Below, piece by piece: positions 11,970 to 31,536 of a stretch of DNA of 64,000 bases. The stretch is taken from positions 103,273-167,272 of IMG/VR virus record IMGVR_UViG_3300032272_000001; one strand, 5' to 3'. Numbering within the stretch: position 1 is the first letter of the stretch; every line of letters begins with the position of its first letter. The stretch comes from a virus. Lineage: Duplodnaviria; Heunggongvirae; Uroviricota; Caudoviricetes. The position numbers and the translations under genes were made by a program. The notes below the pieces were generated by a model. The model worked only from the letters and a program-made list of their open reading frames with translations. It was not told the DNA's origin and did not search any database.

Positions 11970-12004
11970 AGTCTAAACTTTCGTTGCTTGTTTCGTCTAT
12001 CCCT

Positions 12005-12465: not shown

Positions 12466-12508
12466 AATCTCAACACTTTCGCTTGTTTCTGTTTATGCTG
12501 GCCGCGAT

Positions 12509-15287: not shown

Positions 15288-15614
15288 TTATATTGCAGAT
15301 TCTGCTTTCACTACTGTTAATTTTTGCAATAATGGCTCGATTGTGGTAATAATGAAATCAAGATCACTTGTTGTAATATCACCATAGCAATCCTTAAAAT
15401 CAAAGGATAAATTAAATTCTTTATAATCTACTTGATCTACATCAGAAAATACAATAATGATGGAATCATCATCCCAATTTGCAGATAATACACCATCATC
15501 ATTCCTATTTACTATAAAATCATTCTCTGAATCAAATTTCCGAAGAAGAAATTTTGACAGTGCACTAAGAGACGATTCATTGATAATGTCGCCTTTTTCA
15601 AAGATTTTACACAT
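15288..15614 (-). CDS. hypothetical protein; paralog of 14950..15267
   Basis: 108 aa. Confidence 0.5.
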   Translation of the reverse strand: MCKIFEKGDIINESSLSALSKFLLRKFDSENDFIVNRNDDGVLSANWDDDSIIIVFSDVDQVDYKEFNLSFDFKDCYGDITTSDLDFIITTIEPLLQKLTVVKAESAI

Positions 15615-15689
15615 TGTATGACGCCTTCCGAGGTTGCTGATCTGCTATCCCTAGCAACTATGAAATGTTGTGTCAAGTGAAAATAATTG

Positions 15690-15717
15690 TTGACATCACT
15701 CTAGAATCCACTATGAT
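15690..15717 (+). promoter_or_regulatory. Early promoter module (TTGACA-N16-TATGAT), first of a repeated series on the + strand
   Basis: ttgacatcactctagaatccactatgat followed by a conserved leader (ccagatatcagataacaaagggaacataatATG). Confidence 0.55.
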
Positions 15718-15747
15718 CCAGATATCAGATAACAAAGGGAACATAAT

Positions 15748-16168
15748 ATGTCAGAATTTCATAAACACTCCAATGGTGGTGGATTAGTAGAGTCTACTGC
15801 AACAGTATCTGATACTGCTTTTATTGGACCTAATGTTATAGTATGTGATAATGCAAGAGTATCTGGTACTGCTCTAGTATGTGATAATGCAAGAGTATCT
15901 GATGATGTTCTAGTATTTGGTGATGCAAGAGTATCTGATGATATTAAAGTATATGATAATGCTATAGTATCTGATGATGTTCTAGTATTTGGTGATGCAA
16001 GAGTATCTGGTCATGCAAAAGTATTTGGTGATGCTAAAGTAGCTGGCTATGCTATAGTATGATAATGCAAGAGTATCTATTGGACAGAAACGAGATATGG
16101 AACTAAATTAGGTGATGAAACACTTGAAATTATTTCTATGCTACAGAAATTAAAGTCAATTATGGATT
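15748..16168 (+). pseudogene. Decayed hexapeptide-family copy: intact N-terminus and 104 codons, then in-frame TGA TAA, then the last 26 codons of the C-terminal domain in the same frame (an internal deletion)
   Basis: gtatgataatgc here versus gtatgtgataatgc in intact copies (2-bp loss). The segment encoding SKPFP...EAIEH is missing and the sequence resumes at YWTETRYGTKLGDETLEIISMLQKLKSIMD*. Confidence 0.6.
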
Positions 16169-16194
16169 GACATCCCTCTAGAATCCACTATGAT
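16167..16194 (+). promoter_or_regulatory. Early promoter module
   Basis: ttgacatccctctagaatccactatgat. Confidence 0.55.
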
Positions 16195-16225
16195 ACAAGA
16201 TATCAGATAACAAAAGGAACATAAT

Positions 16226-16897
16226 ATGACAAAATTTCATAGACACTCCAATGGTGGTGGTCTTGTTGCAGATACTGCAAGAGTATCTGATACTGCTTTT
16301 ATTGGACCTAATGCAAGAGTATTTGGTAATGCTGAAGTATATGGTAATGCTATAGTATTTGGTAATGCTGTAATATCTGGTGATGCTGTAGTATATGGTA
16401 ATGCTAAAGTGTCTGGTAATGCTAGAGTATACAACAATGCTAAAGTATCTGATGATGCTAGAGTATACAGCAATGCTAAAGTATATGGTAATGCTAGAGT
16501 ATGTGATAATGCTGTAGTATGTGATAATGCTATAGTATCTGGTGATGCAAGAGTATATGGTGATGCAAGAGTATTTGATAATGCTGTAGTATGTGATAAT
16601 GCTTCAGTATCTGATGATGCTATAGTATGTGATCATGCAAGAGTATTTGGTGATGCAAAAGTATTTGGTGATGCTCTAGTATCAAAACCATTTCCAAAAA
16701 TCACCAGATCAGATAGATATGATTTTATTCTTGTGCCAGATAAAGATGGAGTCGATAGAATCATTGCTGGTTGCAGGTATTTTAGTATCGAAGAAGCAAT
16801 TGAACATTGGACAGAAACAAGAGGTGGAACTAAACTAGGAACCGAAACCTTAAAAATTATTGATATGTTACAAGAATTAAAGTCAATTATTGATTGA
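16226..16897 (+). CDS. Hexapeptide-repeat family paralog (223 aa)
   Basis: Conserved N/C modules and about 21 repeats. Confidence 0.75.
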   Translation: MTKFHRHSNGGGLVADTARVSDTAFIGPNARVFGNAEVYGNAIVFGNAVISGDAVVYGNAKVSGNARVYNNAKVSDDARVYSNAKVYGNARVCDNAVVCDNAIVSGDARVYGDARVFDNAVVCDNASVSDDAIVCDHARVFGDAKVFGDALVSKPFPKITRSDRYDFILVPDKDGVDRIIAGCRYFSIEEAIEHWTETRGGTKLGTETLKIIDMLQELKSIID

Positions 16898-16921
16898 CAA
16901 CACCATAGATTGGTGTATGAT
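16894..16921 (+). promoter_or_regulatory. Early promoter module (overlaps the stop codon of the upstream gene)
   Basis: ttgacaacaccatagattggtgtatgat. Confidence 0.55.
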
Positions 16922-16951
16922 CCAGATATCAGATAACAAAAGGAACATAAT

Positions 16952-17533
16952 ATGTCAGAATTTCATAGACACTCCAATGGTGGTGGATTAGTAGAGTCTA
17001 CTGCTAGTGTTGCTGATACTGCTTATATTGGACCTAATGCTGTAGTAGCTGGTAATGCTGTAGTAGAGGGCAATGCTATAGTAGATGGCAATGCTAAAGT
17101 ATTTGATAATGCTAGAGTAACTGGTCATGCTCTAGTATCTGGTAATGCTCAAATATTTGGTAATGCTCAATTATATGGTTATGCTATGGTATATGGTGAT
17201 GCTAAAGTATTTGATAAGGTTATAGTATCTGGTACTGCAAGAGTATTTGGTGATGCTGAAGTATATGATAATGCTGTAGTATCTGGTGATGCTGTAGTAT
17301 CTGGTGATGCTCTAGTATCAAAACCGTTTCCAAAAATTACTAGATCAGATGGATATGATTTTATTCTTGTACCAGATAAAGATGGTATTGATGTAATAAT
17401 TGCTGGTTGCAGATACTTTAGTATCGAAGAAGCAATTGAACATTGGACAGAAACAAGATATGGAACTAAATTAGGTGATGAAACTATGTTGATTATTGAA
17501 ACATTGCAGAAATTAAAGTCAATTATGGATTGA
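16952..17533 (+). CDS. Hexapeptide-repeat family paralog (193 aa)
   Basis: Same architecture. Confidence 0.75.
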   Translation: MSEFHRHSNGGGLVESTASVADTAYIGPNAVVAGNAVVEGNAIVDGNAKVFDNARVTGHALVSGNAQIFGNAQLYGYAMVYGDAKVFDKVIVSGTARVFGDAEVYDNAVVSGDAVVSGDALVSKPFPKITRSDGYDFILVPDKDGIDVIIAGCRYFSIEEAIEHWTETRYGTKLGDETMLIIETLQKLKSIMD

Positions 17534-17557
17534 CAACACCATAGATTGCTGTATGAT
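17530..17557 (+). promoter_or_regulatory. Early promoter module
   Basis: ttgacaacaccatagattgctgtatgat. Confidence 0.55.
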
Positions 17558-17585
17558 CCAGATATAGAAACAAAGGGAAAATGAT

Positions 17586-18221
17586 ATGTCAGGATTTCAT
17601 AGACATCCAAATGGTGGTGGTCTAGTAGAGTCTACTGCATATGTAGAAGATACTGCTTTTATTGGACCAGATGCTAGAGTAACTGGTGATGCTGAAGTAA
17701 CTGGTAATGCTCAAGTATTTGGTAATGCAAGAGTATCTGGTAATGCTAAAGTATTTGATAAGGTTATGGTATATGGTCATGCTTTAGTATCTGGTAATGC
17801 TATGGTATATGGTCATGCTTTAGTATCTGGTAATGCTATGATATCTGATAATGCTGAAGTATTTGATGATGCTAGAGTATATGGCTATGCTCATGTATTT
17901 GGTAATGCTCAAATATTTGGTAATGCTGTAATATTTGGTAATGTAAAAGTAGCTGGTAAAGCTGTAATATCTGGTAATGCAAGAGTATATGGTAATGCTG
18001 TAGTATCAAAACCATTTCCACGCATTCCTAGATCAGATGGATATGATTTTATTCTTGTACCTGATAAAGATGGTATTGATAGAATCATTGCTGGATGTAG
18101 ATATTTCACAGTCCCAGAAGCAATTGAACATTGGACAGAAACGAGATATGGAACCAAATTAGGAAGCGAGACTATGTTGATTATTGAAACATTGCAGAAA
18201 TTAAAGTCAATTATTGATTGA
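17586..18221 (+). CDS. Hexapeptide-repeat family paralog (211 aa)
   Basis: Same architecture. Confidence 0.75.
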   Translation: MSGFHRHPNGGGLVESTAYVEDTAFIGPDARVTGDAEVTGNAQVFGNARVSGNAKVFDKVMVYGHALVSGNAMVYGHALVSGNAMISDNAEVFDDARVYGYAHVFGNAQIFGNAVIFGNVKVAGKAVISGNARVYGNAVVSKPFPRIPRSDGYDFILVPDKDGIDRIIAGCRYFTVPEAIEHWTETRYGTKLGSETMLIIETLQKLKSIID

Positions 18222-18275
18222 CAACAACATAGAATCCACTATGATCAAGATATCAGATAACAAAGGGAACATACC

Positions 18276-18515
18276 ATGGATTTTGATGCTTTAAGAGAAT
18301 TAAAATCGGATTTGAATCATATTGTAACAAGATATGATCGTAAACAAGAAAATAAAAAATGTTATAATCATTATGCGCTTGGCATATATATGATTGCGGT
18401 TGATAATGCGATTAATGATATTGATAATGGTGCGAAGACAATTGATGCCATTAACAATAGATTCAATGACAGATTGCTTGCATTTATTTTGAAGAATTTA
18501 GATATAAAGGATTGA
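18276..18515 (+). CDS. hypothetical small protein (unrelated insert within the array)
   Basis: 79 aa; promoter module at 18228..18255. Confidence 0.5.
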   Translation: MDFDALRELKSDLNHIVTRYDRKQENKKCYNHYALGIYMIAVDNAINDIDNGAKTIDAINNRFNDRLLAFILKNLDIKD

Positions 18516-18521
18516 CATAAT

Positions 18522-19103
18522 ATGTCAGAATTTCATAAACATCCTAATGGTGGTGGATTAGTAGAGTCTACTGCAACAGTATCTGATACTGCTTATATTG
18601 GTCCTAATGCTGTAGTAGCTGGTAATGCTGCGGTACTTGGTAATGCTATAGTATCTAATAATGCTATAGTATCTAATAATGCAAGAGTATCTAATAATGC
18701 TCAAGTATATGGCGATGCTAAAGTGTCTGGTAATGCTCAAGTATTTGATAATGCTGAAGTATATGGTGATGCTCAAGTATTTGATAAGGTTATGGTATAT
18801 GGTACTGCTAGAGTATATGATAATGCTGTAGTATCTGGTAAAGCTGTAATATCTGGTGATGCTGTAGTATCTGGTGATGCTGTAGTATCAAAACCGTTTC
18901 CAAAAATTACTAGATCAGATGGATATGATTTTATTATTGTACCTGATTTATCTGGTAGTGATAGAATCATTGCTGGCTGTAGATATTTTAGTATCGAAGA
19001 AGCAATTGAACATTGGACAGAAACAAGATATGGAACTAAACTAGGCGATGAAACACTTGAAATTATTTCTATGCTACAGAAATTAAAGTCAATTATGGAT
19101 TGA
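18522..19103 (+). CDS. Hexapeptide-repeat family paralog (193 aa)
   Basis: Only a truncated upstream module survives here (ttgacataatATG). Confidence 0.75.
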   Translation: MSEFHKHPNGGGLVESTATVSDTAYIGPNAVVAGNAAVLGNAIVSNNAIVSNNARVSNNAQVYGDAKVSGNAQVFDNAEVYGDAQVFDKVMVYGTARVYDNAVVSGKAVISGDAVVSGDAVVSKPFPKITRSDGYDFIIVPDLSGSDRIIAGCRYFSIEEAIEHWTETRYGTKLGDETLEIISMLQKLKSIMD

Positions 19104-19158
19104 CATACCTCTAGAATCCACTATGATCAAGATATCAGATAACAAAGGAATAACTCAA

Positions 19159-19566
19159 ATGAAAAAATCAGATTTTGTTAGTGGTTTTATTGAGGCCGCA
19201 CTATGGTCATCTACATATGAACATGATGATTGCGAGGATTGTGTGGAAGGTTGTTGCAATCCCAATTGTGATGATGGCAAACATGAATTGTCACATAAAG
19301 CACGAAAAATGTTGACTGAGATTGCAGAAACATTTTTCGATAAGCACAATGCTCTATTCACTAATGATAATCTCATTCGACCATTAGTATGTTCTGTGTC
19401 CGAATACGCTGGCCATGATTTTTGGTTAACCAGCCAAGGACATGGTTGCGGGTTTTGGGATGGCGATTGGAATGAACCGGCTTCAACCATACTGACAGAG
19501 GCTAGCAAATGTGTAGGAGAAAAGCATTTTTATGTCAATTCTAATGGCGAATTTGATATAGAATAG
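19159..19566 (+). CDS. hypothetical Cys-rich protein (start at internal Met; the track ORF begins at 19123 inside the promoter)
   Basis: CEDCVEGCCNPNCDDGKHELSH motif; RBS aaaggaata. Confidence 0.5.
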   Translation: MKKSDFVSGFIEAALWSSTYEHDDCEDCVEGCCNPNCDDGKHELSHKARKMLTEIAETFFDKHNALFTNDNLIRPLVCSVSEYAGHDFWLTSQGHGCGFWDGDWNEPASTILTEASKCVGEKHFYVNSNGEFDIE

Positions 19567-19622
19567 TTGACATACATATAGAATCTGATATGATCCAGAT
19601 ATAGAAACAAAGGGAACATAAT

Positions 19623-20420
19623 ATGTCAGAATTTCATAAACATATCAATGGTGGTGGATTAGTAGAGTCTACTGCAACAGTTGCAGTATCTGCTTATATT
19701 GGACCTAATGCTAAAGTATTTGGTAATGCTAAAGTGTTTGGTTATGCTCTAGTATGTGATTATGCTGTAATATCTGGTGATGCTGTAATATCTGGTTATG
19801 CTAAAGTATATGATAATGCTGTAATATCTGGTGATGCTGTAGTATGTGATAATGCTAGAGTATCTGGCTATGCTCAAATATTTGGTAATGCTCAAGTATA
19901 TGGTAATGCTCTAGCATTTGATAAGGTTATGGTATATGGTGATGCAAGAGTATTTGGTAATGCTCAAGTATATGATGATGCTAGAGTATACAGCAATGCT
20001 AGAGTATCTGGTGATGCAAGAGTATTTGGTGATGCTGTAGTATTTGATAATGCTCTAGTATTTGATAAGGTTATGGTATATGGTACTGCAAGAGTATATG
20101 GTGATGCAAAAGTATATGATAATGCTATAGTAACTGGTAATGCTATAGTAACTGGTAATGCTATAGTATATGGCAATGTTCAAGTATCTGGTGATGCTAG
20201 AGTATCAAAACCATTTCCACAAATTAAAAGATCAGATAGATATGATTTCATTCTTGTGCCAGATAAAAATGGTACTGAAATAATAATTGCTGGTTGCAGA
20301 TACTTTACAGTTCCAGAAGCTATTGAACATTGGACAGAAACAAGAGGTGGAACCAAATTAGGTGATGAGACTATGCTGATTATCGAAACATTGCAGAAAT
20401 TAAAGTCAATTATTGATTGA
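19623..20420 (+). CDS. Hexapeptide-repeat family paralog (265 aa, the longest)
   Basis: About 28 repeats; promoter module at 19567..19594. Confidence 0.75.
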   Translation: MSEFHKHINGGGLVESTATVAVSAYIGPNAKVFGNAKVFGYALVCDYAVISGDAVISGYAKVYDNAVISGDAVVCDNARVSGYAQIFGNAQVYGNALAFDKVMVYGDARVFGNAQVYDDARVYSNARVSGDARVFGDAVVFDNALVFDKVMVYGTARVYGDAKVYDNAIVTGNAIVTGNAIVYGNVQVSGDARVSKPFPQIKRSDRYDFILVPDKNGTEIIIAGCRYFTVPEAIEHWTETRGGTKLGDETMLIIETLQKLKSIID

Positions 20421-20472
20421 CATCACTCTAGAATCTGATATAATCAAGATATAGAAACAAAGGGAACGTACA

Positions 20473-20673
20473 ATGTCTAATATGTCATACTGCCGTTGGG
20501 AAAATACCTCAAAAGATCTAATGGATTGTGTTGAAGATTTTGGAGAATTTGTTGAAGATGGCGGAACACTTGATGAATATCTTGAAAAGCTATCATCAAG
20601 CGAACGGCGCGCATTTAATAAGATCATAAACGAGTGTAATTTGTTTATGTCACTATACGAAGATTCTGAATAA
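20473..20673 (+). CDS. hypothetical small acidic protein
   Basis: 66 aa; promoter module at about 20417. Confidence 0.5.
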   Translation: MSNMSYCRWENTSKDLMDCVEDFGEFVEDGGTLDEYLEKLSSSERRAFNKIINECNLFMSLYEDSE

Positions 20674-20704
20674 ATATCGCCGCGTAACTATTCAAGGGGA
20701 TGTA

Positions 20705-21025
20705 ATGACTTGTATCTTGAAACCAATGATAAGAGATTTGAAAATACATGCAAAATACAATGGTATTAAGATCAATGAAACATCACTGAAAGGAGCGATT
20801 GCCTTTCTTGAGAAGAATGAATTGATTCATGCTCCAACATTATTTGTTTCTGATAATGGCGTTTTGACTTTACAGTGGGATAATAAGCAATTATATTTCA
20901 CAGTAGAGTTTAAGGATGATCAATTCACATATGATTGTCATGTTTATAATAGCAACATCAAAGGAACCGGAACTACTAGACGACTAGCAGATATCACGAA
21001 AATAGTCAAAACAATAAGGATATAA
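20705..21025 (+). CDS. hypothetical protein, third member of the small paralog family (14950, 15288)
   Basis: INETSLKGAIAFL...DNGVLTLQWDNKQLYF is similar to the two minus-strand paralogs. Confidence 0.5.
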   Translation: MTCILKPMIRDLKIHAKYNGIKINETSLKGAIAFLEKNELIHAPTLFVSDNGVLTLQWDNKQLYFTVEFKDDQFTYDCHVYNSNIKGTGTTRRLADITKIVKTIRI

Positions 21026-21249
21026 TGATGTTAGAGAAACAATATGTTACACATATTGATGAAGTTTCGTATAGGATAAGAGCAAATCCAGATGCGCTGC
21101 CGAGCCATACTGCGCAGTATGGCATTGTTCTGGAATATAAGAATGCTGATCAACAGGAATGGAATATCGGAATTTTCATTGAACCAGAAGCTATCAGTGA
21201 TATCATTGAAGCAATGGTTCTATTAATTGGCGATAAGAAAGAAAACTGA
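21025..21249 (+). CDS. hypothetical protein
   Basis: 74 aa; its ATG overlaps the upstream stop. Confidence 0.45.
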   Translation: MMLEKQYVTHIDEVSYRIRANPDALPSHTAQYGIVLEYKNADQQEWNIGIFIEPEAISDIIEAMVLLIGDKKEN

Positions 21250-21306
21250 TTGACATACCACTAGAATCTGCTATGATTAGATCATCGACAACAAAGGAAC
21301 ATTATT

Positions 21307-21648
21307 ATGAAGCCCATTAGTAAAGTTATCATGCTTTCAGATGAACGTAATGGTATCGCAGCACCGAAAAAAGCAATGGGTTGTATTGATTGGTCGGATA
21401 TCAATATCGTGAATCTTAAAGAAACACTTACCAAAGATATTCTTATTGTTTCTACGTTTAATATTAATTGCGATGGTGCTGATTCGGAATCGTATTGGGA
21501 ATCATGGCAGTATATTTGCGAGAATGCCGTTCTGGAATATAAACCAACCGGACAAAGATTCACTGTATATCAGGATGGTGATGTTTGGTTGATTGATCAG
21601 ACCGCAGTAGTTGGTATTGATCACGAATTGTGGGAATCTGACGATTAA
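21307..21648 (+). CDS. hypothetical protein
   Basis: 113 aa; promoter module at about 21247. Confidence 0.5.
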   Translation: MKPISKVIMLSDERNGIAAPKKAMGCIDWSDINIVNLKETLTKDILIVSTFNINCDGADSESYWESWQYICENAVLEYKPTGQRFTVYQDGDVWLIDQTAVVGIDHELWESDD

Positions 21649-21663
21649 ACCGAAAGGAATGAT

Positions 21664-21912
21664 GTGATGTTTGCAGTAATTCAATATGGATATAATATTT
21701 GTGGCGTTGGAGAAGATGAAGATTCTGCCTTAGAAATGGCTGCGGAATATTGTGATTTGCCAGATAACATAAAAACAATGCCAATGACAGATGGTGATAT
21801 TATTATCGTTGGAGCAACCAAAGAATTGTGTGATCATGTTATAAAATGTGGTGGTGATGTGAAATACACTATTAGTGGTGGTGTTGCTGATATTTGTTTG
21901 ACGCCAGAATAG
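21664..21912 (+). CDS. hypothetical protein
   Basis: 82 aa. Confidence 0.45.
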   Translation: MMFAVIQYGYNICGVGEDEDSALEMAAEYCDLPDNIKTMPMTDGDIIIVGATKELCDHVIKCGGDVKYTISGGVADICLTPE

Positions 21913-21952
21913 AATCTGCTATAATCAGAATATAGAAACAGAAAGAAACACA

Positions 21953-22375
21953 ATGTCTTATTGGTCAAATACAGGCAAATATCAAAAAGAATATTTCAAT
22001 TTTTATGATGAATTGGTTCCCTCTAGAGGAAAAGCAGAATTGCTTGGCGGGGAAATTTTGCGAGCCGTTTCTAAAATTTCATATGATTATTATAACAATG
22101 GGAGTTGCAATAATACGTCTGGGGCATGGAATTTTCTTAACGAATTTTTTATGTGTCGTGTTCCTGATAAAGATATGATAGAAGCGCTGAACTGCCTAGA
22201 TTCTATCAAACATATCGTCAACACTGGCGGATATTCTGATTTGACGGATAACCAAGAAGAAAAATTGAATCGTCTAACTGATCTTGTGGTTGAATTTATT
22301 ATGAATCATCCTGAAGCAAGATATTGTAATGATAGAGATATGTTTGATCTACAGGATGCAGATGATTGGATTTGA
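21953..22375 (+). CDS. hypothetical protein
   Basis: 140 aa. Confidence 0.5.
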   Translation: MSYWSNTGKYQKEYFNFYDELVPSRGKAELLGGEILRAVSKISYDYYNNGSCNNTSGAWNFLNEFFMCRVPDKDMIEALNCLDSIKHIVNTGGYSDLTDNQEEKLNRLTDLVVEFIMNHPEARYCNDRDMFDLQDADDWI

Positions 22376-22443
22376 AGTAATTATTGATTGACAACACCAT
22401 AGATTGTTATATGATAAAGATATAGAAACAAAAGGAACATGAT

Positions 22444-23025
22444 ATGTCAGAATTTCATAAACACTCCAATGGTGGTGGATTAGTAGAGTCTACTGCAACA
22501 GTATCTGATACTGCTTATATTGGACCTAATGCTAGAGTATCTGGCTATGCTCAAGTATTTGGTAATGCTAGAGTATCTGGTTATGCTAGAGTATTTGGTA
22601 ATGCTCTAGTATTTGGTAATGCTATAGTATCTGATGATGCTGTAGTATCTGGTACTGCTAGAGTATATGGTGATGCTCAAGTATATGATGATGCTATAGT
22701 ATGTGATGATGCAAGAGTATATGGTTATGCTGTAATATCTGGTTGTGCTCAAGTATATGGTAATGCTGTAATATCTGGCAATGCTAGAGTATATGGTGAT
22801 GCAAGAGTATCAAAACCGTTTCCACAAATTAAAAGATCAGATAGCTATGATTTTATTCTTGTACCAGATAAAGATGGTATTGATGTAATAATTGCTGGAT
22901 GTAGATATTTCACAGTCACAGCAGCAATTGGACATTGGACAGAAACAAGAGGTGGAACCAAATTAGGTGATGAAACCTTAAAAATTATTGATATGTTACA
23001 AGAATTAAAGTCAATTATGGATTGA
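22444..23025 (+). CDS. Hexapeptide-repeat family paralog (193 aa)
   Basis: Same architecture; promoter module at about 22387. Confidence 0.75.
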   Translation: MSEFHKHSNGGGLVESTATVSDTAYIGPNARVSGYAQVFGNARVSGYARVFGNALVFGNAIVSDDAVVSGTARVYGDAQVYDDAIVCDDARVYGYAVISGCAQVYGNAVISGNARVYGDARVSKPFPQIKRSDSYDFILVPDKDGIDVIIAGCRYFTVTAAIGHWTETRGGTKLGDETLKIIDMLQELKSIMD

Positions 23026-23080
23026 CAACACCATAGATTGCTGTATGATACAAGATATCAGATAACAAAGGAATGATACA

Positions 23081-23806: not shown

Positions 23807-23861
23807 CAACACCATAGATTGCTGTATGATACAAGATATCAAACAACAGAGGAATGATGTA

Positions 23862-24386
23862 ATGAACAAAATTGAAGACGCTCCAATCGATACTCCACTT
23901 CTTGTGTGGGTAAATGATTTTGGACCTCATAAAAAGCCGTGTGGTTGGATGAGTGGATGTTGTCTTGAAAATGTAAATGGTGATAGGCGATTGGTCGCGA
24001 ACGGGCTTCTTGGTGATTGGGATATCTCAACATGGCATGAATACCCAGACGATCCAAGCAAAGAAGAAAAAACCAAAAAACCAGTCGATATTCATGTATG
24101 GGTTAAGCATATCGAAAATAAAATCAATGAATACAATGAAGAATGTGGTTATAATTGGAAGATTTTTTTGAAGGTATTGAGCGGAAGAAAATACCATAAG
24201 ATCGTGACTGGGCGCGTGGGTACTGGCGATAGTAGTGTTTATTGCTTTGTTGAAAAGGAAACAGGCGATATCTACAAATCAGCATCATATAAAGCTCCGG
24301 CAAAGCATGTCAGAGGCAACATAGCCGATCATGATGGCGGTTGGGGATCATGCCTAAATTCTTATGGTGCTGCCTATTTGAGATAG
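23862..24386 (+). CDS. hypothetical protein (start at internal Met; the track ORF begins at 23826 inside the promoter)
   Basis: 174 aa; promoter module at about 23797. Confidence 0.5.
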   Translation: MNKIEDAPIDTPLLVWVNDFGPHKKPCGWMSGCCLENVNGDRRLVANGLLGDWDISTWHEYPDDPSKEEKTKKPVDIHVWVKHIENKINEYNEECGYNWKIFLKVLSGRKYHKIVTGRVGTGDSSVYCFVEKETGDIYKSASYKAPAKHVRGNIADHDGGWGSCLNSYGAAYLR

Positions 24387-24446
24387 GTGTTGACAACAAC
24401 ATAGAATCTGCTATGTTCAGAATATAGAAACACAGAGGAACACACA

Positions 24447-24704
24447 ATGGCTAAGAAAACTGATCTTGAATTTATTACAGATGGTTATTATGTTACTCTG
24501 TTCGCCAATACAGAAGGCGGTGAATATATTTGGAATGAAATCGCAGAAGCATTCGATGGCTATGCTAGATTTCCTGATCATATGTTTGCAAGCATCAAAT
24601 ACCAAATCAAAAAAGCTGGATATACTATCCGCCAATCACGTAAACCAAGTGAAAATAGCATCAAAAAATTGATGGAAGACTTAGAAAAAAGTAGATTGGT
24701 ATAA
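24447..24704 (+). CDS. hypothetical protein
   Basis: 85 aa; promoter ttgacaacaacatagaatctgctatgtt upstream. Confidence 0.5.
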   Translation: MAKKTDLEFITDGYYVTLFANTEGGEYIWNEIAEAFDGYARFPDHMFASIKYQIKKAGYTIRQSRKPSENSIKKLMEDLEKSRLV

Positions 24705-24708
24705 TAGA

Positions 24709-25017
24709 ATGAACACCTTAGTTAAAAATATGCGCAAAAAAGTTGAAGAGCTTGAAGACAAAATCATCGAACATCGATTAAAAATTACTGATATCTATAG
24801 AGAGATTGAAAACCTAGAAGAATTGATTGACGAACAGGAAGATGTTAATCACAAACGATGGTGGTTATTTTCTGGCGCTACAAAAAACAATCCTAATAAT
24901 TATGTTTTTATTGATAGCTATGAAACTTATGATGAACTCATTCAAGCCAAAAAAACCATTGATTGTTGTTGGTTTGACGTGTATGATAATGAAAAGTTTT
25001 CGATGGATAGAATTTAA
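24709..25017 (+). CDS. hypothetical coiled-coil protein
   Basis: 102 aa with a heptad-like EEL/EDK-rich N-terminus. Confidence 0.45.
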   Translation: MNTLVKNMRKKVEELEDKIIEHRLKITDIYREIENLEELIDEQEDVNHKRWWLFSGATKNNPNNYVFIDSYETYDELIQAKKTIDCCWFDVYDNEKFSMDRI

Positions 25018-25035
25018 TAACCAAAGGAATATATT

Positions 25036-25434
25036 ATGTCAGTACAAAAACTATTTGAAGATGCCATTATTCCTGTTATTGAACAAGGAGGACCGTCATA
25101 TTTTAGGGTATTTATCAATTCATGCAGATACCGTGGTCCTAATGGAAGAAAATGTGCTATCGGTCATTTGATTCCAGACGAACTATATAATGAAAAAATT
25201 GAAGACAAAAGGGCATTTATGCTGCCTGCTAATATTAAAAATTATATCATATTAAAATATGATTTGGAAGATGAAGATATTATTGATTATGTTCAAAAGA
25301 TTCATGATGACTTGACTAATAATAATAATGAAATCATTCATGATAATGTTTTCTTACATGATTTCATCAAAAAAGCATATGAAGGCTGTAAAAATCATAA
25401 CGTAAATCCATCATTTTTAGACAAATACACTTGA
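25036..25434 (+). CDS. hypothetical protein
   Basis: 132 aa. Confidence 0.5.
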   Translation: MSVQKLFEDAIIPVIEQGGPSYFRVFINSCRYRGPNGRKCAIGHLIPDELYNEKIEDKRAFMLPANIKNYIILKYDLEDEDIIDYVQKIHDDLTNNNNEIIHDNVFLHDFIKKAYEGCKNHNVNPSFLDKYT

Positions 25435-25467
25435 CATACATGTAGATTCATCTAAGATATAATTATC
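25411..25467 (+). repeat. 57-bp perfect direct repeat, copy 1 (contains an early promoter ttgacatacatgtagattcatctaagatataat)
   Basis: Identical to 25921..25977. Confidence 0.8.
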
Positions 25468-25487
25468 AAAACAAATGGACCATTCAA

Positions 25488-25745
25488 ATGACGAAACATG
25501 TTGATATTGAGGTTGAATTTGATGTGGATGTTGAAGCGGTAGACGATTTCGTGCGTTTTGCGGCGAATTGTAGGATTTTCGCGAAAGTTCATCGAATTCA
25601 CGGTTCCGAAATTCCTGTTGTCACGTTGCGCGCATCGCCCGAAAAATTGATTGACTTTTCGATAAACGTTTGGCGTGTTAATGCCGATGGCGACAAATCG
25701 CGCGCAGTAGATTTTTGCGCGATACATCCGCTTCGATCCCGTTAG
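25488..25745 (+). CDS. hypothetical protein inside the repeat-bracketed GC-richer cassette
   Basis: 85 aa. The local GC is clearly higher than in the flanks (many gcgcg/cgcc runs). Confidence 0.45.
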   Translation: MTKHVDIEVEFDVDVEAVDDFVRFAANCRIFAKVHRIHGSEIPVVTLRASPEKLIDFSINVWRVNADGDKSRAVDFCAIHPLRSR

Positions 25746-25920
25746 TGGAAGCGCAAAAGTATTTTAATCACAAAAGAAATGGTCCGTGTGACTGTTTCTT
25801 TTAAAAGGACCAAAGTCTAATTGGAGGGAAGACCTCTAGAAAAGTATCTAAGCAGAGATAGGTTTAAAACTTGAATCACATCCATGATTGAAACTTATTT
25901 TTGTTGCAATGTCTTTCCAT

Positions 25921-25977
25921 TTTAGACAAATACACTTGACATACATGTAGATTCATCTAAGATATAATTATCAAAAC
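25921..25977 (+). repeat. 57-bp perfect direct repeat, copy 2 (promoter for 25991..26359)
   Basis: Identical to 25411..25467. Confidence 0.8.
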
Positions 25978-25990
25978 AGAGGAACATACA

Positions 25991-26359
25991 ATGTACACAG
26001 TAATGACAGCAAAAACACCAACACAACGCCGCAATGCAGTAAATCTATCAAATGCTTCTGGTAATGTTAGACGATCATTAGCATTTAAAGATGAAGGTTT
26101 AAATGGGCCGATTGAATCTGAATTGAATAAAGGTGGATTGGTTTCTGCTATTAAAGAAGCATTAGAAACTAATCGCGTTAAGCGAGTATCTATTGCTATT
26201 GTTGATACTGATATCGGCACGGCGGTTTGGGTTTCTCCATTGAATATGGACCAATCATATAAAGTCGATTTTGTTATGGATTATATTGGTTTTAAAACAC
26301 CAAACGGATTTCATTGGTATCTGTTAGATGATATGAAAAAAGAAGGGTTTTCGCTATGA
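25991..26359 (+). CDS. hypothetical protein
   Basis: 122 aa. Confidence 0.5.
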   Translation: MYTVMTAKTPTQRRNAVNLSNASGNVRRSLAFKDEGLNGPIESELNKGGLVSAIKEALETNRVKRVSIAIVDTDIGTAVWVSPLNMDQSYKVDFVMDYIGFKTPNGFHWYLLDDMKKEGFSL

Positions 26360-26547
26360 ACGAATCATTTGAATTAGAAAGGAAGATTGACGAACTATGG
26401 TTTGCAGCAAATATTCATAGTTTGGAAATGATGGGTGAATTTGTTGATCATGAAATTGATCATGGAACAGAAAAAGTACCAGATCGACCAAAAGATAAAA
26501 TCGAAACGATTCAAAAAATCATTCAATATCTAAAGGAATCTATCTAA
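26356..26547 (+). CDS. hypothetical small protein
   Basis: 63 aa; ATGA overlap. Confidence 0.45.
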   Translation: MNESFELERKIDELWFAANIHSLEMMGEFVDHEIDHGTEKVPDRPKDKIETIQKIIQYLKESI

Positions 26548-26762
26548 TGGGTAAAATTTCAGAAAATTGTGCAGACGATATCATTAGAACAAGTGTGGGA
26601 ACAACCAACATTCCACATCCTAGTAAAGACGGCATGAGAATTGTTGGTTGGGTTGTTCCTGAAAAGGAAGCTCAGCTTAGCGTTGGTTTAATCGCCCTAG
26701 ATGATATTGCAGAATGTTGGAAAAAATCAAGAAAACCAAAATATTTTAGAGACAATTATTGA
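26547..26762 (+). CDS. hypothetical small protein
   Basis: 71 aa. Confidence 0.45.
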   Translation: MGKISENCADDIIRTSVGTTNIPHPSKDGMRIVGWVVPEKEAQLSVGLIALDDIAECWKKSRKPKYFRDNY

Positions 26763-26834
26763 TTGACAACACCATTATGTATAACAAACTTCCTGCTAAA
26801 GGCGCTCCACTTTAATCCAATTTATGGAAAGATC

Positions 26835-27044
26835 ATGACAAAAAAAGTTTATTTAGTAGATACATCATATGGTCAAACTATCAGATGCTATGATGAAAAA
26901 AATCATTACGAACAATGTTGTTATGAAATTGGTAATGAAAACATTGTTCGTATTAGTTTGGCAACTATAGCTGATATATCTTGGACTATAGCTATGGGAG
27001 GAAGAGTCCCAATAGAAGCACAAAAAATGTATGATGAAAGATAA
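26835..27044 (+). CDS. hypothetical small protein (start at internal Met, after the promoter module at 26763)
   Basis: MTKKVYLVDTSYGQTIRCYDEKNHYEQCCYEIG... Confidence 0.45.
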   Translation: MTKKVYLVDTSYGQTIRCYDEKNHYEQCCYEIGNENIVRISLATIADISWTIAMGGRVPIEAQKMYDER

Positions 27045-27056
27045 CAGGAAAATAAA

Positions 27057-27236
27057 ATGATCAAGAGTGTTGCTTATATCACATATATTGTGGTATATCT
27101 TTTAGTTATGTTATCGTCTAATTGGTTTTACGAATTTGATTCTGAGGCGGTAACGATTAGATTATCTGTGTTTTGTGGTATTTTACTTGGTATAATTGTG
27201 GCAGAATATATTAATTGGGTTTTAAAACATGATTGA
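27057..27236 (+). CDS. small membrane protein (59 aa, under the track cutoff)
   Basis: Manual translation MIKSVAYITYIVVYLLVMLSSNWFYEFDSEAVTIRLSVFCGILLGIIVAEYINWVLKHD. Confidence 0.4.
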   Translation: MIKSVAYITYIVVYLLVMLSSNWFYEFDSEAVTIRLSVFCGILLGIIVAEYINWVLKHD

Positions 27237-27432
27237 TGCTGCTACAGTAGAGTTTAAGGATCATTTATTGGTTGTTTCTTTTTATAAGAGCGGACCAATA
27301 AATGATATTAAATGTGAACCGTTCGCATATGAATTGGACGATGTTGATGTGACATATAAACATCTAAAAGAAAAATTTGGTCGAGAATATATCAATGAAG
27401 TTATTGATGATGCCATTTATTATCTTGATTGA
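27229..27432 (+). CDS. hypothetical small protein
   Basis: 67 aa. Confidence 0.45.
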   Translation: MIDAATVEFKDHLLVVSFYKSGPINDIKCEPFAYELDDVDVTYKHLKEKFGREYINEVIDDAIYYLD

Positions 27433-27448
27433 TTGAAAGGAACATAAT

Positions 27449-28192
27449 ATGATAGGATTTCATAAACATCCAAATGGTGGTGGTCTAGTAGAGTCTACTG
27501 CAACTGTTGCAGATACTGCTTTTATTGGACCAGATGCTGTAGTATCTGGTAATGCTCAAGTATATGATAATGCTCAAGTATTTGGTGATGCTCAAGTATT
27601 TGGTGATGCTCTAGTATCTGGTAATGCTAGAGTATCTGGCTATGCTAGAATATATGATACTGCTCTAGTATCTGGTACTGCTCTAGTATCTGGCTATGCT
27701 AGAATATATGGTAATGCTGTAGTATCTGGTACTGCTCTAGTATATGGCAATGCTATAGTATCTAATAATGCAAGAGTGACTGGTGATGCTGTAGTATGTG
27801 GTGATGCTCAAGTATATGATAATGCTCAAGTATCTGGTGATGCTATAGTATATGGTTATGCTCATGTATTTGGTGATGCTAGAGTATCTGGTAATGTAAG
27901 AGTATCTGGTGATGCTCAAGTATTTGGTAATGCTATGGTATTTGGTAATGCTAGAGTAGCTGGTAATGCTGTAGTATCAAAACCATTTCCAAAAATTACT
28001 AGATCAGATAGCTATGATTTTATTCTTGTACCTGATAAAGATGGTATTGATAGAATCATTGCTGGTTGCAGATATTTCACGGTTCCAGAAGCAATTGGAC
28101 ATTGGACTAGGACAAGAGGTGGTACTAAATTAGGAACCGAAACCTTAAAAATTATTGATATGTTACAAGAATTAAAGTCAATTATTGATTGA
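27449..28192 (+). CDS. Hexapeptide-repeat family paralog (247 aa)
   Basis: Same architecture. Confidence 0.75.
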   Translation: MIGFHKHPNGGGLVESTATVADTAFIGPDAVVSGNAQVYDNAQVFGDAQVFGDALVSGNARVSGYARIYDTALVSGTALVSGYARIYGNAVVSGTALVYGNAIVSNNARVTGDAVVCGDAQVYDNAQVSGDAIVYGYAHVFGDARVSGNVRVSGDAQVFGNAMVFGNARVAGNAVVSKPFPKITRSDSYDFILVPDKDGIDRIIAGCRYFTVPEAIGHWTRTRGGTKLGTETLKIIDMLQELKSIID

Positions 28193-28240
28193 CAAGAAAC
28201 CACAATATAGTATGATCAAGACATCAGAACAAAGGATATC

Positions 28241-28477
28241 GTGATGTATAAAGCATTCTATACTGAAAATACCATCATTCCTACAGTCTATGATATAGGA
28301 ACTTTTTGTACTCTTGAAACTGCTGCGGAGGAATGTGTAAAACACGCAACAAAACATAAACGATATGATCATATCGTTGCATATGAATTTGAAGAAGACG
28401 GTAGCGGTTATGATATGGCAGCTGCGATTGGTGGTGATATCAGAATTTACACTGTGAATAGGAAATATAATGTATAG
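28241..28477 (+). CDS. hypothetical protein
   Basis: 78 aa; promoter module at about 28190. Confidence 0.5.
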   Translation: MMYKAFYTENTIIPTVYDIGTFCTLETAAEECVKHATKHKRYDHIVAYEFEEDGSGYDMAAAIGGDIRIYTVNRKYNV

Positions 28478-28892
28478 AGCATATTTTCGAATGATTGGAT
28501 TTAATGTTGAATTAGATATTGGGGTGTTCAATAAGTTTGGAGAAGCTGTTGATAAATGTGTTGTTCATGCTAAAGAAAACAAATATTTCGAAAGAATCAT
28601 TAAAGACTATTACACAAAAGATGAATATCATTTATTAGTAATAAATGATGGTTATTTAATATTGTATGCAATAGTTGAAACAGAAGGAAAAGAAACAAAA
28701 ATGACTGATGAAGAACATGTACAAAGAATCAAAGACGCCATTGATATTCTTGTCGATGCTACTGATGCTGCCATGGCGGCTGGGCTTATGATAGATTATT
28801 TTGTAAATTCAAATCACAAAATACAAGACGAAAAAAGTAATTTGACTGCATTAGTGAAACCAACGATTAATGTATCAAGATCTTACACATAA
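28470..28892 (+). CDS. hypothetical protein
   Basis: 140 aa. Confidence 0.5.
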   Translation: MYRAYFRMIGFNVELDIGVFNKFGEAVDKCVVHAKENKYFERIIKDYYTKDEYHLLVINDGYLILYAIVETEGKETKMTDEEHVQRIKDAIDILVDATDAAMAAGLMIDYFVNSNHKIQDEKSNLTALVKPTINVSRSYT

Positions 28893-28925
28893 TATTACCT
28901 TAATGGTTCTGTAGATCAATAAAAA

Positions 28926-29006
28926 GGAAGAGATGGCAAATGGGGAGCCCCACAGCTCATAACTGTGTGTTTAAAAACCGAGTTGGTTCGATTCCGACCT
29001 CTTCTA
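28926..29006 (+). tRNA. Probable tRNA-Met/fMet (CAT) with an unusually long (about 14 nt) variable region; CCA encoded
   Basis: Acceptor ggaagag/ctcttct, anticodon arm cacag-ctCATaa-ctgtg, T-arm gttgg-ttcgatt-ccgac, then a-cca. The variable-loop length is atypical. Confidence 0.5.
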
Positions 29007-29013
29007 CCATTAT

Positions 29014-29086
29014 AGTTCCATAGCTCAGCGGAAAGAGCAATTGTCTTCTAAACAATAGGTCGTAGGTTCAAATCCTACTGGAACTA
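29014..29086 (+). tRNA. tRNA-Arg (anticodon TCT); CCA encoded
   Basis: Acceptor agttcca/tggaact, D-arm gctcagcggaaagagc, anticodon arm attgt-ctTCTaa-acaat, T-arm gtagg-ttcaaat-cctac, discriminator a, then cca. Confidence 0.75.
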
Positions 29087-29108
29087 CCAAACAACAAAGG
29101 AACATATC

Positions 29109-29318
29109 ATGAAAAAAAATGACTATCACGTAAAGGCGAAGGTTACTGTAGAAGTAGAAATGTGTGTTGTTGCTGAAAGTCGTAATGACGCAAAAAGAAT
29201 TGTTGATGATCATATCATAATGACAGCAATTCTTATTGATGTACCATCAAAAGAATATGATGTGTATGAAGACACTATTTCAGATGTTGATTATAGGGGT
29301 ATTGAACCAATCAGTTAG
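29109..29318 (+). CDS. hypothetical small protein
   Basis: 69 aa; RBS aaaggaac. Confidence 0.5.
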   Translation: MKKNDYHVKAKVTVEVEMCVVAESRNDAKRIVDDHIIMTAILIDVPSKEYDVYEDTISDVDYRGIEPIS

Positions 29319-29327
29319 GAGTATTAC

Positions 29328-29501
29328 ATGTATGAAATTGTGTATTCTCATAGTGATCGAGAACCAGACACAAAAAAGACAATAAACAAAGCTAAACAAA
29401 AAGCAGAAAGGATTAATGAACCAGCTGCAATTAGGTCTCCAATGGGATATATAGTTGCTATATATTTTGGTGCTGATGTTGGTTGGATAACAATTCATTA
29501 A
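29328..29501 (+). CDS. hypothetical small protein (57 aa, under the track cutoff)
   Basis: Manual translation MYEIVYSHSDREPDTKKTINKAKQKAERINEPAAIRSPMGYIVAIYFGADVGWITIH. Confidence 0.35.
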   Translation: MYEIVYSHSDREPDTKKTINKAKQKAERINEPAAIRSPMGYIVAIYFGADVGWITIH

Positions 29502-29513
29502 AATTATTATTAT

Positions 29514-29688
29514 GAGACACTTTTTTAATTTTATGGTTATGTTTATGTTGTTTTTTATTATGTGCATAGTGATAAGTATGCACACCACAATCAATAATCA
29601 TATTAATACGCTAAAGAATGATAAGATGACTATGCAAGAAATAAATGAAGAAGAGCAAGAAAAAGCTCTTGCAAAGAAAGTTGAATAA
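29514..29688 (+). CDS. small membrane protein (57 aa, under the track cutoff)
   Basis: Manual translation MRHFFNFMVMFMLFFIMCIVISMHTTINNHINTLKNDKMTMQEINEEEQEKALAKKVE. Confidence 0.35.
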
Positions 29689-29785
29689 ATGAAACCAGAA
29701 CCAATTACATTATATGAAGTGTTGTTTTGGATAACATTAATTATTCTTGCTGGTTTATATGCTTTTACAAGAACAGGAACATAAT

Positions 29786-30493
29786 ATGATAGGATTTCAT
29801 AAACATCCAAATGGTGGTGGTCTAGTAGAGTCTACTGCAACTGTTGCAGATACTGCTTTTATTGGACCTAATGCTAGAGTATATGGTAATGCTCAAGTAT
29901 TAGGTTATGCTCAAGTATCTGGCAATGCTAAAGTATTTGATAATGCTAGAGTATTTGATAATGCTGTAATATTTGGTGATGCTCAAGTATGTGATCATGC
30001 AAGAGTATATGGCAATGCTGTAGTACATGGTGATGCTCTAGTATATGTTAATGCTATAGTATGTGATCATGCAAGAGTATCTGGTAATACTCATGTATAT
30101 GGTAATGCTCATGTGTATGATAATGCTGCATTATCTGATAATGCTCTAGTATATGGAAATGCTCAAGTATGTGATAATGCAAGAGTATATGATAATGCTC
30201 AAGTATTTGGTGATGCTATAGTATGTGATAATGCAAGAGTATCTGGTAATGCAAGAGTATATGGTAATGCTGTAGTGTCAAAACCATTTCCAAAAATCAC
30301 TAGATCAGATAGATATGATTTCATTCTTGTACCTGATAAAGATGGTATTGATAGAATCATTGCTGGTTGTAGATATTTTACAGTTCCAGAAGCTATTGAA
30401 CATTGGACAAAAACAAGATATGGAACTAGTTTAGGCAATGAGACTTTAATCATTATTAGAACATTACAAGAATTAAAGTCAATTATGGATTGA
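29786..30493 (+). CDS. Hexapeptide-repeat family paralog (236 aa, counted from the conserved MIGFHKHPNGGG start)
   Basis: The track ORF begins upstream at 29747. The conserved family N-terminus and RBS point to 29786. Confidence 0.75.
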   Translation: MIGFHKHPNGGGLVESTATVADTAFIGPNARVYGNAQVLGYAQVSGNAKVFDNARVFDNAVIFGDAQVCDHARVYGNAVVHGDALVYVNAIVCDHARVSGNTHVYGNAHVYDNAALSDNALVYGNAQVCDNARVYDNAQVFGDAIVCDNARVSGNARVYGNAVVSKPFPKITRSDRYDFILVPDKDGIDRIIAGCRYFTVPEAIEHWTKTRYGTSLGNETLIIIRTLQELKSIMD

Positions 30494-30544
30494 CAGCAAC
30501 ATAGATTGCTGTCAATCCATATATAGAAACAAAGGGAACATAAT

Positions 30545-31252
30545 ATGACAGAATTTCATAAACATCCTAATGGTGGTGGATTAGTAGAATCTACTGCTAG
30601 TGTTGCTGATACTGCTTTTATTGGAATTAATGCTAGAGTATATGGTAATGCTAGAGTATCTGGTGATGCTATAGTATCTGGCTATGCTCAAATATTTGGT
30701 GATACTAGAGTATATGGTGATGCTAAAGTATGTGATCATGCAAGAGTATATGGAAATGCTAAAGTATGTGATAATGCTATAGTATATGGTCATGCTCATG
30801 TATATGATAATGCTGTAGTATCTGGTTATGCTGTAGTATCTGGTTATGCTCAAGTATCTGATGATGCTCAAGTATTTGGTCATTCTAGCGTATCTGGTAA
30901 TGCTCTAGTATTTGGTCATTCTAGAGTATATGATGATGCAAGAGTATCTGGTACTGCTCTAGTATCTGGTACTGCTCTAGTATATGGTGATGCAAGAGTA
31001 TCTGGTGATGTAAGTGTATATGGTGATGCTAAAGTATCAAAACCGTTTCCACAAATTAAAAGATCAGATGGATATGATTTTATTATTGTACCAGAGTTAT
31101 CAGGTAATGATAGAATAATTGCTGGTTGCAGATATTTCACAGTCCCAGAAGCTATTGAACATTGGACAGAAACAAGAGGTGGAACCAAATTAGGTGATGA
31201 GACTATGCTGATTATCGAAACACTTCAACGAATGAAAGAGATTTATGGATGA
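30545..31252 (+). CDS. Hexapeptide-repeat family paralog (235 aa)
   Basis: Same architecture; C-term ends ...LQRMKEIYG. Promoter module at about 30490. Confidence 0.75.
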   Translation: MTEFHKHPNGGGLVESTASVADTAFIGINARVYGNARVSGDAIVSGYAQIFGDTRVYGDAKVCDHARVYGNAKVCDNAIVYGHAHVYDNAVVSGYAVVSGYAQVSDDAQVFGHSSVSGNALVFGHSRVYDDARVSGTALVSGTALVYGDARVSGDVSVYGDAKVSKPFPQIKRSDGYDFIIVPELSGNDRIIAGCRYFTVPEAIEHWTETRGGTKLGDETMLIIETLQRMKEIYG

Positions 31253-31536
31253 ATGTATTGTTAATGGATCGTATAATTAGTGGTGAATTTAGAGAACCAG
31301 GTTTTGATCCAAATCAGGTTCAGATTTATGACTATTATAAAAGAGTAGTCATTCGAGATTTTAATATTACTCCAACGACGGATAACCCGTTACGTATAGT
31401 TTGGATTAAACAATATGTCACTGAATATGGAGGAAATGAATATGGATTAGCACTTAAAGAAGCAGAAAAAGCGTGTTTTCTAATTAAAACACATTATATG
31501 ATTATGGTTTATAACAAAGAGGTAAAAAATGTTTAA
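31249..31536 (+). CDS. hypothetical protein
   Basis: 95 aa; ATGA overlap. Confidence 0.5.
   Translation: MNVLLMDRIISGEFREPGFDPNQVQIYDYYKRVVIRDFNITPTTDNPLRIVWIKQYVTEYGGNEYGLALKEAEKACFLIKTHYMIMVYNKEVKNV

Follow-up and report, generated by a model that had tools for sequence, protein, structure and literature searches.

Promoter-early stem-loop (PeSL) elements are composite units that combine an upstream stop codon, an AT-rich tract, a sigma70-like promoter, a stable terminating or attenuating stem-loop, and a Shine-Dalgarno (SD) sequence with its ATG (PMC2839356, PMC4122927). They are known from the T4-like phages RB49/phi1, T4/PST and KVP40/nt-1, are enriched in hyperplastic regions, are linked to indels between near-identical phages, and can form mini-circles; such repeated early-promoter cassettes have been proposed as a gene-shuffling engine in T-even, pseudo-T-even and schizo-T-even phages (PMC2839356, PMC4122927). 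A 64,000-nucleotide stretch of a Caudoviricetes genome (IMG/VR record IMGVR_UViG_3300032272_000001, positions 103,273 to 167,272; hereafter the window, whose first letter is position 1) contains a repeated promoter/leader module that can be compared with these elements. Its copies are probably early promoter/leader units of the host-sigma70 type that double as short patches of homology for general homologous recombination.

Each plus-strand unit is ~55–75 bp long and consists of TTGACA, a 16-nt spacer, TATGAT, and a leader of 23–31 nt ending in AACAAAGG(G)AAC...ATG; positions 7–12 of the spacer read TAGA(A/T)T (TAGAWT). A strict regular expression finds 16 copies, all on the plus strand. A position weight matrix (PWM) built from these 16 returns 18 matches above 8 bits, again all on the plus strand, with -35 positions from 15690 to 30490, and no match elsewhere on either strand of the 64 kb; shuffled windows yield 0–2 matches each. 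The 18 copies comprise 16 intact and two degenerate members (21898, with TTGACG, and 30490, which has lost its -10), and no intact copy occurs beyond 28216. Further remnants are three collapsed scars (18512, 26763 and 27433) and two stretches of leader with ribosome-binding site (RBS) only (29090 and 29765). In the alignment, the unit begins ~19 nt before the -35 and ends at the start codon; its invariant or near-invariant positions are TTGAC(A), the TAGA-T of the spacer, the TA---T of the -10, an initial transcribed AT, and AACA before the SD. The original prediction of a repeated module of ~60 bp is therefore sound, but its count of more than 25 occurrences, before nearly every gene, is too high: the 18 copies precede about half of the ~37 annotated plus-strand genes. 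Between 15.7 and 31.5 kb, 16 of these genes have an intact module, two a degenerate one, three a scar, and two a leader only, and the remaining ~14 are translationally coupled or begin 4–31 nt after the preceding gene. From 15.7 to 28.3 kb, a module copy is present in every intergenic gap that reaches 40 nt.

All copies lie on the coding strand, 50–60 nt upstream of a start codon, with the SD sequence AAAGG(G)AA 6–9 nt before the ATG and a 5' untranslated region (UTR) of ~25 nt. Sixteen of the 18 copies, of the form TTGACA-N16-TA(T/A)(G/A)(A/T)T, match 10–12 of the 12 sigma70 consensus positions (14 copies match 11–12); the hexamers are of Escherichia coli type. Across the window, 18 sites reach at least 11 of 12 consensus positions and 14 of them are module copies, compared with 2–9 sites in mononucleotide shuffles. 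The 30 nt upstream of the -35 average 72% A+T, versus 66% (standard deviation 8%) for 30-mers drawn at random from the region. The stretch 4715–39322 has no copy of the T4 late motif, TATAAATA, which does stand directly upstream of gp32 and the baseplate genes, a distribution that supports, but does not prove, an early class for the region. The promoter role named in the original prediction fits what is found, namely an excellent sigma70-type promoter followed by SD and ATG, in the orientation of the genes and within a TATAAATA-free region, and from these signals we infer promoter activity and early timing. Two other promoter assignments were considered and rejected: TAGAAT as an alternative -10 has no usable -35 located 16–18 nt upstream, and a Caulobacter-type promoter (TTGACGS-N10-14-GCTANAWC) would require a spacing from which the observed one, being far too short, departs.

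Many of the units adjoin members of one gene family. Fourteen genes of the window encode paralogous beta-solenoid proteins of the YdcK type, which have a conserved C-terminal domain of ~70 amino acids; 11 lie on the plus strand (15748–31252, one of them truncated) and carry arrays of an 18-nt (hexapeptide) repeat of very different lengths, and three more distant paralogs are translationally coupled on the minus strand (7011–8742). Homologs of this protein are widespread in unrelated phages. The intact copy 1 (15690–15750) lies upstream of the truncated solenoid gene 15748–16062 and stands back-to-back with a minus-strand TTGACA (15674–15669). Copy 2 (16167–16228) separates a solenoid pseudogene remnant from the solenoid gene 16226–16897, whose TGA stop falls within the -35 hexamer of copy 3 (16894–16954), and copy 4 (17530–17588) is flanked on both sides by solenoid genes; all three are intact, as are the next five. 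Copies 5 (18218–18278), 6 (19100–19161) and 8 (20417–20475, with -10 TATAAT) each follow a solenoid gene and precede, respectively, the unrelated orf79, orf135 and orf66; copy 7 (19567–19625) follows orf135 and precedes a solenoid gene. Non-solenoid neighbors occur on both sides of the intact copy 9 (21250–21309), of the degenerate copy 10 (21898–21955, with -35 TTGACG and -10 TATAAT), and of copy 14 (24390–24449, with -10 TATGTT). The intact copy 11 (22388–22446) is preceded by a non-coding solenoid 3'-end remnant, AGTAATTATTGA, and the intact copies 12 (23022–23083) and 13 (23803–23864) share 58 bp of exact identity. Copies 15 and 16 lie in the direct repeats described below. Copy 17 (28189–28246) has intact hexamers and an unrelated spacer, and its identity with copy 3 stops 1 nt past the -35. 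Copy 18 (30484–30547) keeps its -35, but a perfect 16-bp hairpin (TATGGATTGACAGCAA/TTGCTGTCAATCCATA, z = -7.3) has replaced its -10. Both arms of this palindrome (30484–30521) differ from the sister copies, as expected of a template-switch (quasi-palindrome) mutation.

The remnants are interspersed among these copies. At 18512–18524, TTGACA is read as fused directly to the leader TAATATG, with an ACATA microhomology consistent with a promoter deletion of ~52 bp. A half-module at 26746–26775 consists of a solenoid-type 3' end and TTGACAACACCAT, followed by unrelated sequence with no -10; this half-module (26763) provides the stop codon of the unrelated orf71. A probable scar at 27433–27451, in which TTGA is joined to AAGGAACATAATATG and the promoter core is gone, lies upstream of the solenoid gene 27449–28192. 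Only leader and RBS are present at 29090–29111 (AACAACAAAGGAACATATCATG) and at 29765–29788 (ACAGGAACATAATATG), the latter upstream of the solenoid gene 29786–30493. The former immediately follows a tRNA-Arg: two tRNA genes, Met-CAT and Arg-TCT, are located at 28926–29089 inside the cassette block. Only the tRNA-Arg passes the Rfam gathering threshold, and the 84-nt tRNA-Met is called by ARAGORN alone.

Overlap of the module with the stop codon of the upstream gene, also part of the original prediction, holds for 10 intact upstream open reading frames (ORFs; nine solenoid genes and orf132), which end in the configuration T-TGA-CA, and for the scar at 18512. The upstream TGA lies inside or adjoins the -35 in 12 copies. 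Since the gene before a unit usually has its stop codon inside or next to the -35, no terminator would fit between the two. The 18 same-orientation units would split 15 kb of the 30-kb region into transcription units of 1–3 genes each, and host RNA polymerase would start at all of them immediately after infection, generating nested read-through transcripts.

Several sequence junctions record past exchange involving the units. First, copy 13 is an exact chimera that matches copy 2 from -74 to +6 and copy 12 from -19 to +39. Because it is identical to both on overlapping stretches, it is a recombinant with a crossover in the 25 bp around the -35. Second, a perfect 59-bp direct repeat flanks an insert of 446 bp. 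The left repeat (25415–25473) comprises the last 16 nt of orf132 and copy 15 (-35 at 25431, -10 TAAGAT); the right repeat (25920–25978) includes copy 16 (-35 at 25936) and lies upstream of orf122. The insert (25474–25919) has 46–49% G+C versus a 33% background, and contains the ORFan orf85 (25488–25745) and, at ~25772–25802, a hairpin followed by a U-run that is the only terminator-like hairpin of the plus-strand block. No match to orf85 was found in Pfam, PHROG, or phage tblastn or blastn searches, and among 5.8 billion proteins it matches only itself; the GC-rich insert has a sub-threshold Rfam match only. The topology is that expected if a circle had integrated by homologous exchange at the module, and the repeat pair could excise the insert again. 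Third, the modules at 22388 and 26763, which today come after unrelated genes, still have remnants of a solenoid 3' end upstream. Fourth, the promoter core appears to have been deleted between short repeats at 18512, and probably also at 27433. The half-module at 26763, these promoter deletions (that at 27433 being probable) and copy 30490 without its -10 match degraded PeSL types (Comeau 2014, Fig. 5; PMC4122927). Exact blocks of 47–80 bp are common to several copy pairs, and discrete haplotypes are recombined in varied combinations. Across the solenoid 3' ends and modules, Sawyer-type runs are significant (global p 0.005–0.04), and the minimum number of recombination intervals (Rm) is 18 in 240 columns for the 3' ends with their modules and 12 in 120 columns for the 5' ends.

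Since the units offer 40–80 bp at 80–100% identity and are directly repeated, general homologous recombination of the phage may use them as crossover sites, along with the much longer homology of the solenoid genes. Unequal exchange between units would duplicate, delete or circularize the genes between them, and exchange at a unit would let a foreign gene enter already provided with expression signals; the direction and mechanism of each rearrangement are deduced from the present arrangement of sequences. Other observations weigh against this interpretation. The spacer is 16 nt long, and the optimum is 17. Exact identity through the -35 has a median of 8 bp between copy pairs and only seven of the 153 pairs share at least 50 bp, which makes most copies poor substrates for recombination at present. 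Breakpoint density in the module does not exceed that of the solenoid coding sequence beside it. The only relative found lacks the whole region, which leaves no indel boundary to set against the position of a module. The stem-loop or terminator that gives PeSLs their name is absent from 17 of the 18 copies. The original prediction that the module marks a recombination cassette boundary thus stands in part: the traces within the genome (the chimera at 23803, the 59-bp repeat, and the half-modules) agree with it, but exchange is not confined to the module. That homology of the module shuffled the solenoid family fares less well, given that breakpoints occur all along the coding sequence and the genes supply far more homology than the module.

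An alternative is that the repeat is a passenger of tandem duplication of the solenoid genes, with unrelated genes inserted later and no special role in shuffling. A solenoid gene lies on at least one side of 13 of the 18 copies, and in 10 a solenoid 3' end runs into the -35; the solenoid genes are therefore the main source of homology for the solenoid family. Homology between solenoid units also runs on without a break from the C-terminal domain, across the module and into the N-terminal region, with conversion breakpoints spread over the whole, and the 3' half of the leader, GGAACATAATATG, is present only before solenoid genes. This account nevertheless leaves five copies (21250, 21898, 24390, 25431 and 25936) that have no solenoid gene on either side and stand between unrelated genes, and the unit is therefore not merely part of the solenoid gene. 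Moreover, at the half-module (26763) and at the 59-bp repeat that brackets the ORFan insert, nothing but the module is shared, and the minus-strand promoters described below have the same architecture without solenoid genes. A pure passenger origin is thus considered unlikely, if not negligibly so. On the interpretation of the units as promoters that double as homology patches, the module appears to be the only common sequence just for the non-solenoid cassettes.

The genomic setting is that of a variable region. The window has a G+C content of 33–34% and encodes gp32, a gp33-type late coactivator, and the baseplate wedge proteins gp6, gp7 and gp8. Because gp6 is at best ~35% identical to its counterparts in cultured phages (Caulobacter Cr30, Sinorhizobium phiM12 and Pelagibacter HTVC008M), and megablast of window 15600–23600 against 50,697 phage records gave no match, the window is assigned on sequence grounds to a distant T4-like myovirus. 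Among 5.8 billion proteins, the best match to its gp32 is 70% identical and the next 55%. The closest relative, contig L136 (41.6% G+C, versus 33% in the window), is collinear with window 875–3797 and 34852–39026 at 69–75% DNA identity. Between the same flanking conserved genes, L136 has ~1.4 kb (11557–12923; Cpn10, a 62-residue ORF and an unrelated 224-residue ORF) where the window has 30 kb (3819–33837), a block that sits between the gp32-side genes and a gene for a protein of 1047 residues. Since these ~30 kb are missing from the closest relative, 3.8–33.8 kb is classified by this comparison as a hyperplastic region. It contains all 25 copies of both promoter classes, mostly among ORFans, together with the 14 solenoid paralogs, ArdA, a Tad6-like gene and a pentapeptide-repeat gene, and most genes flanking promoter copies have neither an assigned family nor a function. 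No module and no repeated intergenic motif was found in the 21 kb of L136 that were scanned.

The same phage is represented by a 176-kb European Nucleotide Archive (ENA) contig, L015, which matches it over 18 kb apart from a single 11-bp indel, and exact-protein look-ups recover only this same phage, as L015 and as short Logan contigs that break at repeats. The indel, TTCGTAGTAAC, lies at 10141–10151 inside the pentapeptide-repeat gene 9481–10236 (minus strand), is missing from L015, and is the sole difference between the two assemblies over the 18 kb. An assembly artifact was rejected as the source of the repeats: the two assemblies are independent and agree over 18 kb, and the k-mer used in assembly is longer than any of the exact repeats (80 bp or less). 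Searches for further relatives through the flanking lipoprotein (a related-locus search) found none, and those through the solenoid protein recovered only distant loci, 37–43% identical, without a repeated promoter. Scans with the module pattern gave eight matches in IMG/VR, each single and at chance level, at least 119 in Joint Genome Institute (JGI) and ENA metagenome contigs, and at least 120 in GTDB genomes, the latter two sets likewise consisting, among the matches listed, of single ones at chance level. BLAST of the loci retrieved from the IMG/VR and metagenome matches against the window revealed no similarity except solenoid repeats. None of the collections searched yielded a genome near enough for a comparison of cassette boundaries.

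A second promoter class is present on the minus strand, as the original prediction had also noted for 10.9–14.4 kb. It comprises seven copies of TTGACT-N16-TAGTAT/TATATT between 10983 and 14399 (-35 starts at 14399, 14083, 13744, 13451, 13082, 12033 and 11010), each 30–45 nt upstream of a minus-strand start codon and with its own conserved leader. These copies precede small minus-strand genes, including ArdA-type anti-defense genes, and may do for the divergently transcribed minus-strand genes what the plus-strand class would do for its own. The two classes differ in spacer, -10 and leader, and TAGAWT is the only common part of the spacer. At 15669–15695, two TTGACA hexamers stand back-to-back on opposite strands, 15 bp apart, and this position appears to mark the divergence of minus- and plus-strand early transcription. 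A gene-free gap of 520 bp at 14433–14950 contains, especially at 14490–14730, an iteron-like repeat array: TGTCACAGAGACACAAAAA occurs three times at 19-nt spacing, together with a 42-nt repeat with a CACAGTTGCGTCTATGCAACTGTG hairpin and a 33-nt inverted repeat. Located near the minimum of cumulative GC skew and near the switch of the divergent early units, the gap is a candidate replication origin or regulatory region. Elsewhere on the minus strand, a 50-bp unit, GAAGCCTTGTCTCTATGTAATTTTTTTTTATTTTTT..., is tandemly duplicated at 10250–10340, just upstream of the pentapeptide-repeat gene, and similar hairpins, GTGTGACTTAATTGTCACAC and GGTGTGGCTTAATTGCCACACC, occur at 10400–10560, in non-coding DNA downstream of the final unit of the minus class.

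The spacer hexamer raises the possibility, rather improbable, that the unit also binds some factor of phage or host by which all the early genes are turned on or off together, with TAGA(A/T)T as the candidate site. The hexamer occurs in 17 of the 18 plus-strand and five of the seven minus-strand copies, is as conserved as the -10 hexamer (1.2–2.0 bits per position), and is shared by two classes whose spacers are otherwise distinct. No known role was found for it. However, no candidate regulator was identified, the site lacks dyad symmetry, its conservation could be explained by shared ancestry of the two classes, and copy 28189, which is without it, retains perfect -35 and -10 hexamers. A related idea, quite improbable in turn, is that a dedicated phage factor recognizes TAGA(A/T)T and acts either as a regulator of the early set or by directing recombination to the units. 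If so, the units would constitute a regulated or actively shuffled cassette system and not passive patches of homology.

Two further explanations can be dismissed more briefly. That the likeness of the copies arose by independent selection for strong promoters, with neither common descent nor recombination, is highly improbable: the hexamers and SD are the most conserved positions, but identity reaches into the spacer, 15–20 nt upstream and the initial transcribed region, which have no known function, and the exact 47–80 bp blocks and recombined haplotypes contradict it. Equally remote is an active mobile element, resembling a miniature inverted-repeat transposable element (MITE) or an integron attC site, with a dedicated recombinase; the many dispersed copies, the cassette-like gene layout and the one insert between direct repeats would suit it, but there are no terminal inverted repeats and no conserved secondary structure, the only flanking duplication is the 59 bp of module plus 16 nt of the neighboring gene, a signature of homologous and not of site-specific exchange, and breakpoints fall at many positions. 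No integrase or other recombinase was noticed in the region, where the search was not exhaustive.

Comparison with the parts of a PeSL sharpens the characterization of units that are probably promoters and homology patches at once. The module has near-consensus -35 and -10 hexamers, an upstream stop codon at its 5' end, SD and start codon at its 3' end, a location within a hyperplastic region, and degraded or half elements alongside (26763, 18512, probably 27433, and 30490). The missing part is the stem-loop. RNAalifold over the 18 copies predicts no conserved pairs, and folds of single copies are unremarkable (z from -1.3 to +1.7 as DNA; for the 58 nt upstream, folded as RNA, from -2.1 to +2.2). 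One hairpin alone recurs, a weak GTCAATT/GATTGAC stem of 7 bp that lacks a U tract, and a terminator scan found no terminator at the modules. The exception is copy 30490, where the hairpin described above has destroyed the -10. The PeSL-like label of the original prediction is apt for promoter, SD/ATG, stop codon, location and half-elements, but not for the stem-loop.

A similar architecture is thus present in a lineage whose core proteins are only ~35% identical to those of any cultured phage and 70% identical to those of the nearest metagenomic relative. Its occurrence without a stem-loop suggests that homology of the promoter and leader, and not the terminator hairpin, is the common denominator. 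The junctions at 23803, 25415/25920, 26763 and 18512 are concrete and testable, and the 25 sites may serve as a ready annotation of early promoters for a 30-kb block of genes of unknown, probably anti-defense, function.

Among other known systems, integron gene-cassette arrays likewise consist of small, mostly unknown genes separated by a repeat at which cassettes come and go, possibly via circles; here, however, the repeat is a promoter and not an attC site, has no conserved fold, and appears to exchange by homology and not site-specifically. Matus-Garcia et al. reportedly described in 2012 putative mobile promoters, near-identical promoter regions upstream of non-homologous genes in prokaryotic genomes, chiefly on chromosomes of bacteria and frequently in association with transposable elements. 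The window similarly has one promoter and 5' UTR before unrelated genes within one genome, but its copies, located in the hyperplastic region of a phage, are associated with tandem paralogs. The early promoters of T4 depend on host sigma70, occur in many copies, give overlapping early transcripts, and have a -35 of the GTTTAC type. The window resembles T4 in having many similar, strong sigma70-type promoters before small, non-essential early genes, with predicted read-through into the next unit and the late motif TATAAATA elsewhere in the genome; unlike T4, its hexamers are the E. coli-type TTGACA/TATGAT, and its copies are much more alike than function alone would require.

PeSLs are matched in the order of the composite unit, from upstream stop codon to near-consensus sigma70 promoter to SD and ATG, in the concentration of units among ORFans in hyperplastic regions, in their single orientation, and in the degraded half-elements alongside. 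In RB49, ORF192 lies between two identical PeSL copies, and here one ORFan likewise lies between identical repeats. The window units differ in their 16-nt spacer (not 17) carrying TAGAWT and in having the stop codon of the gene upstream within the -35 itself; most copies sit inside a family of tandem paralogs whose coding sequence offers more homology than the element, and the units are known from the sequence of one genome. The unit thus resembles a PeSL in its presumed working but fails one defining feature, and it is not filed as a member. The new T4-like lineage carries a PeSL-like variant of something that was already on record for other T4-like phages.

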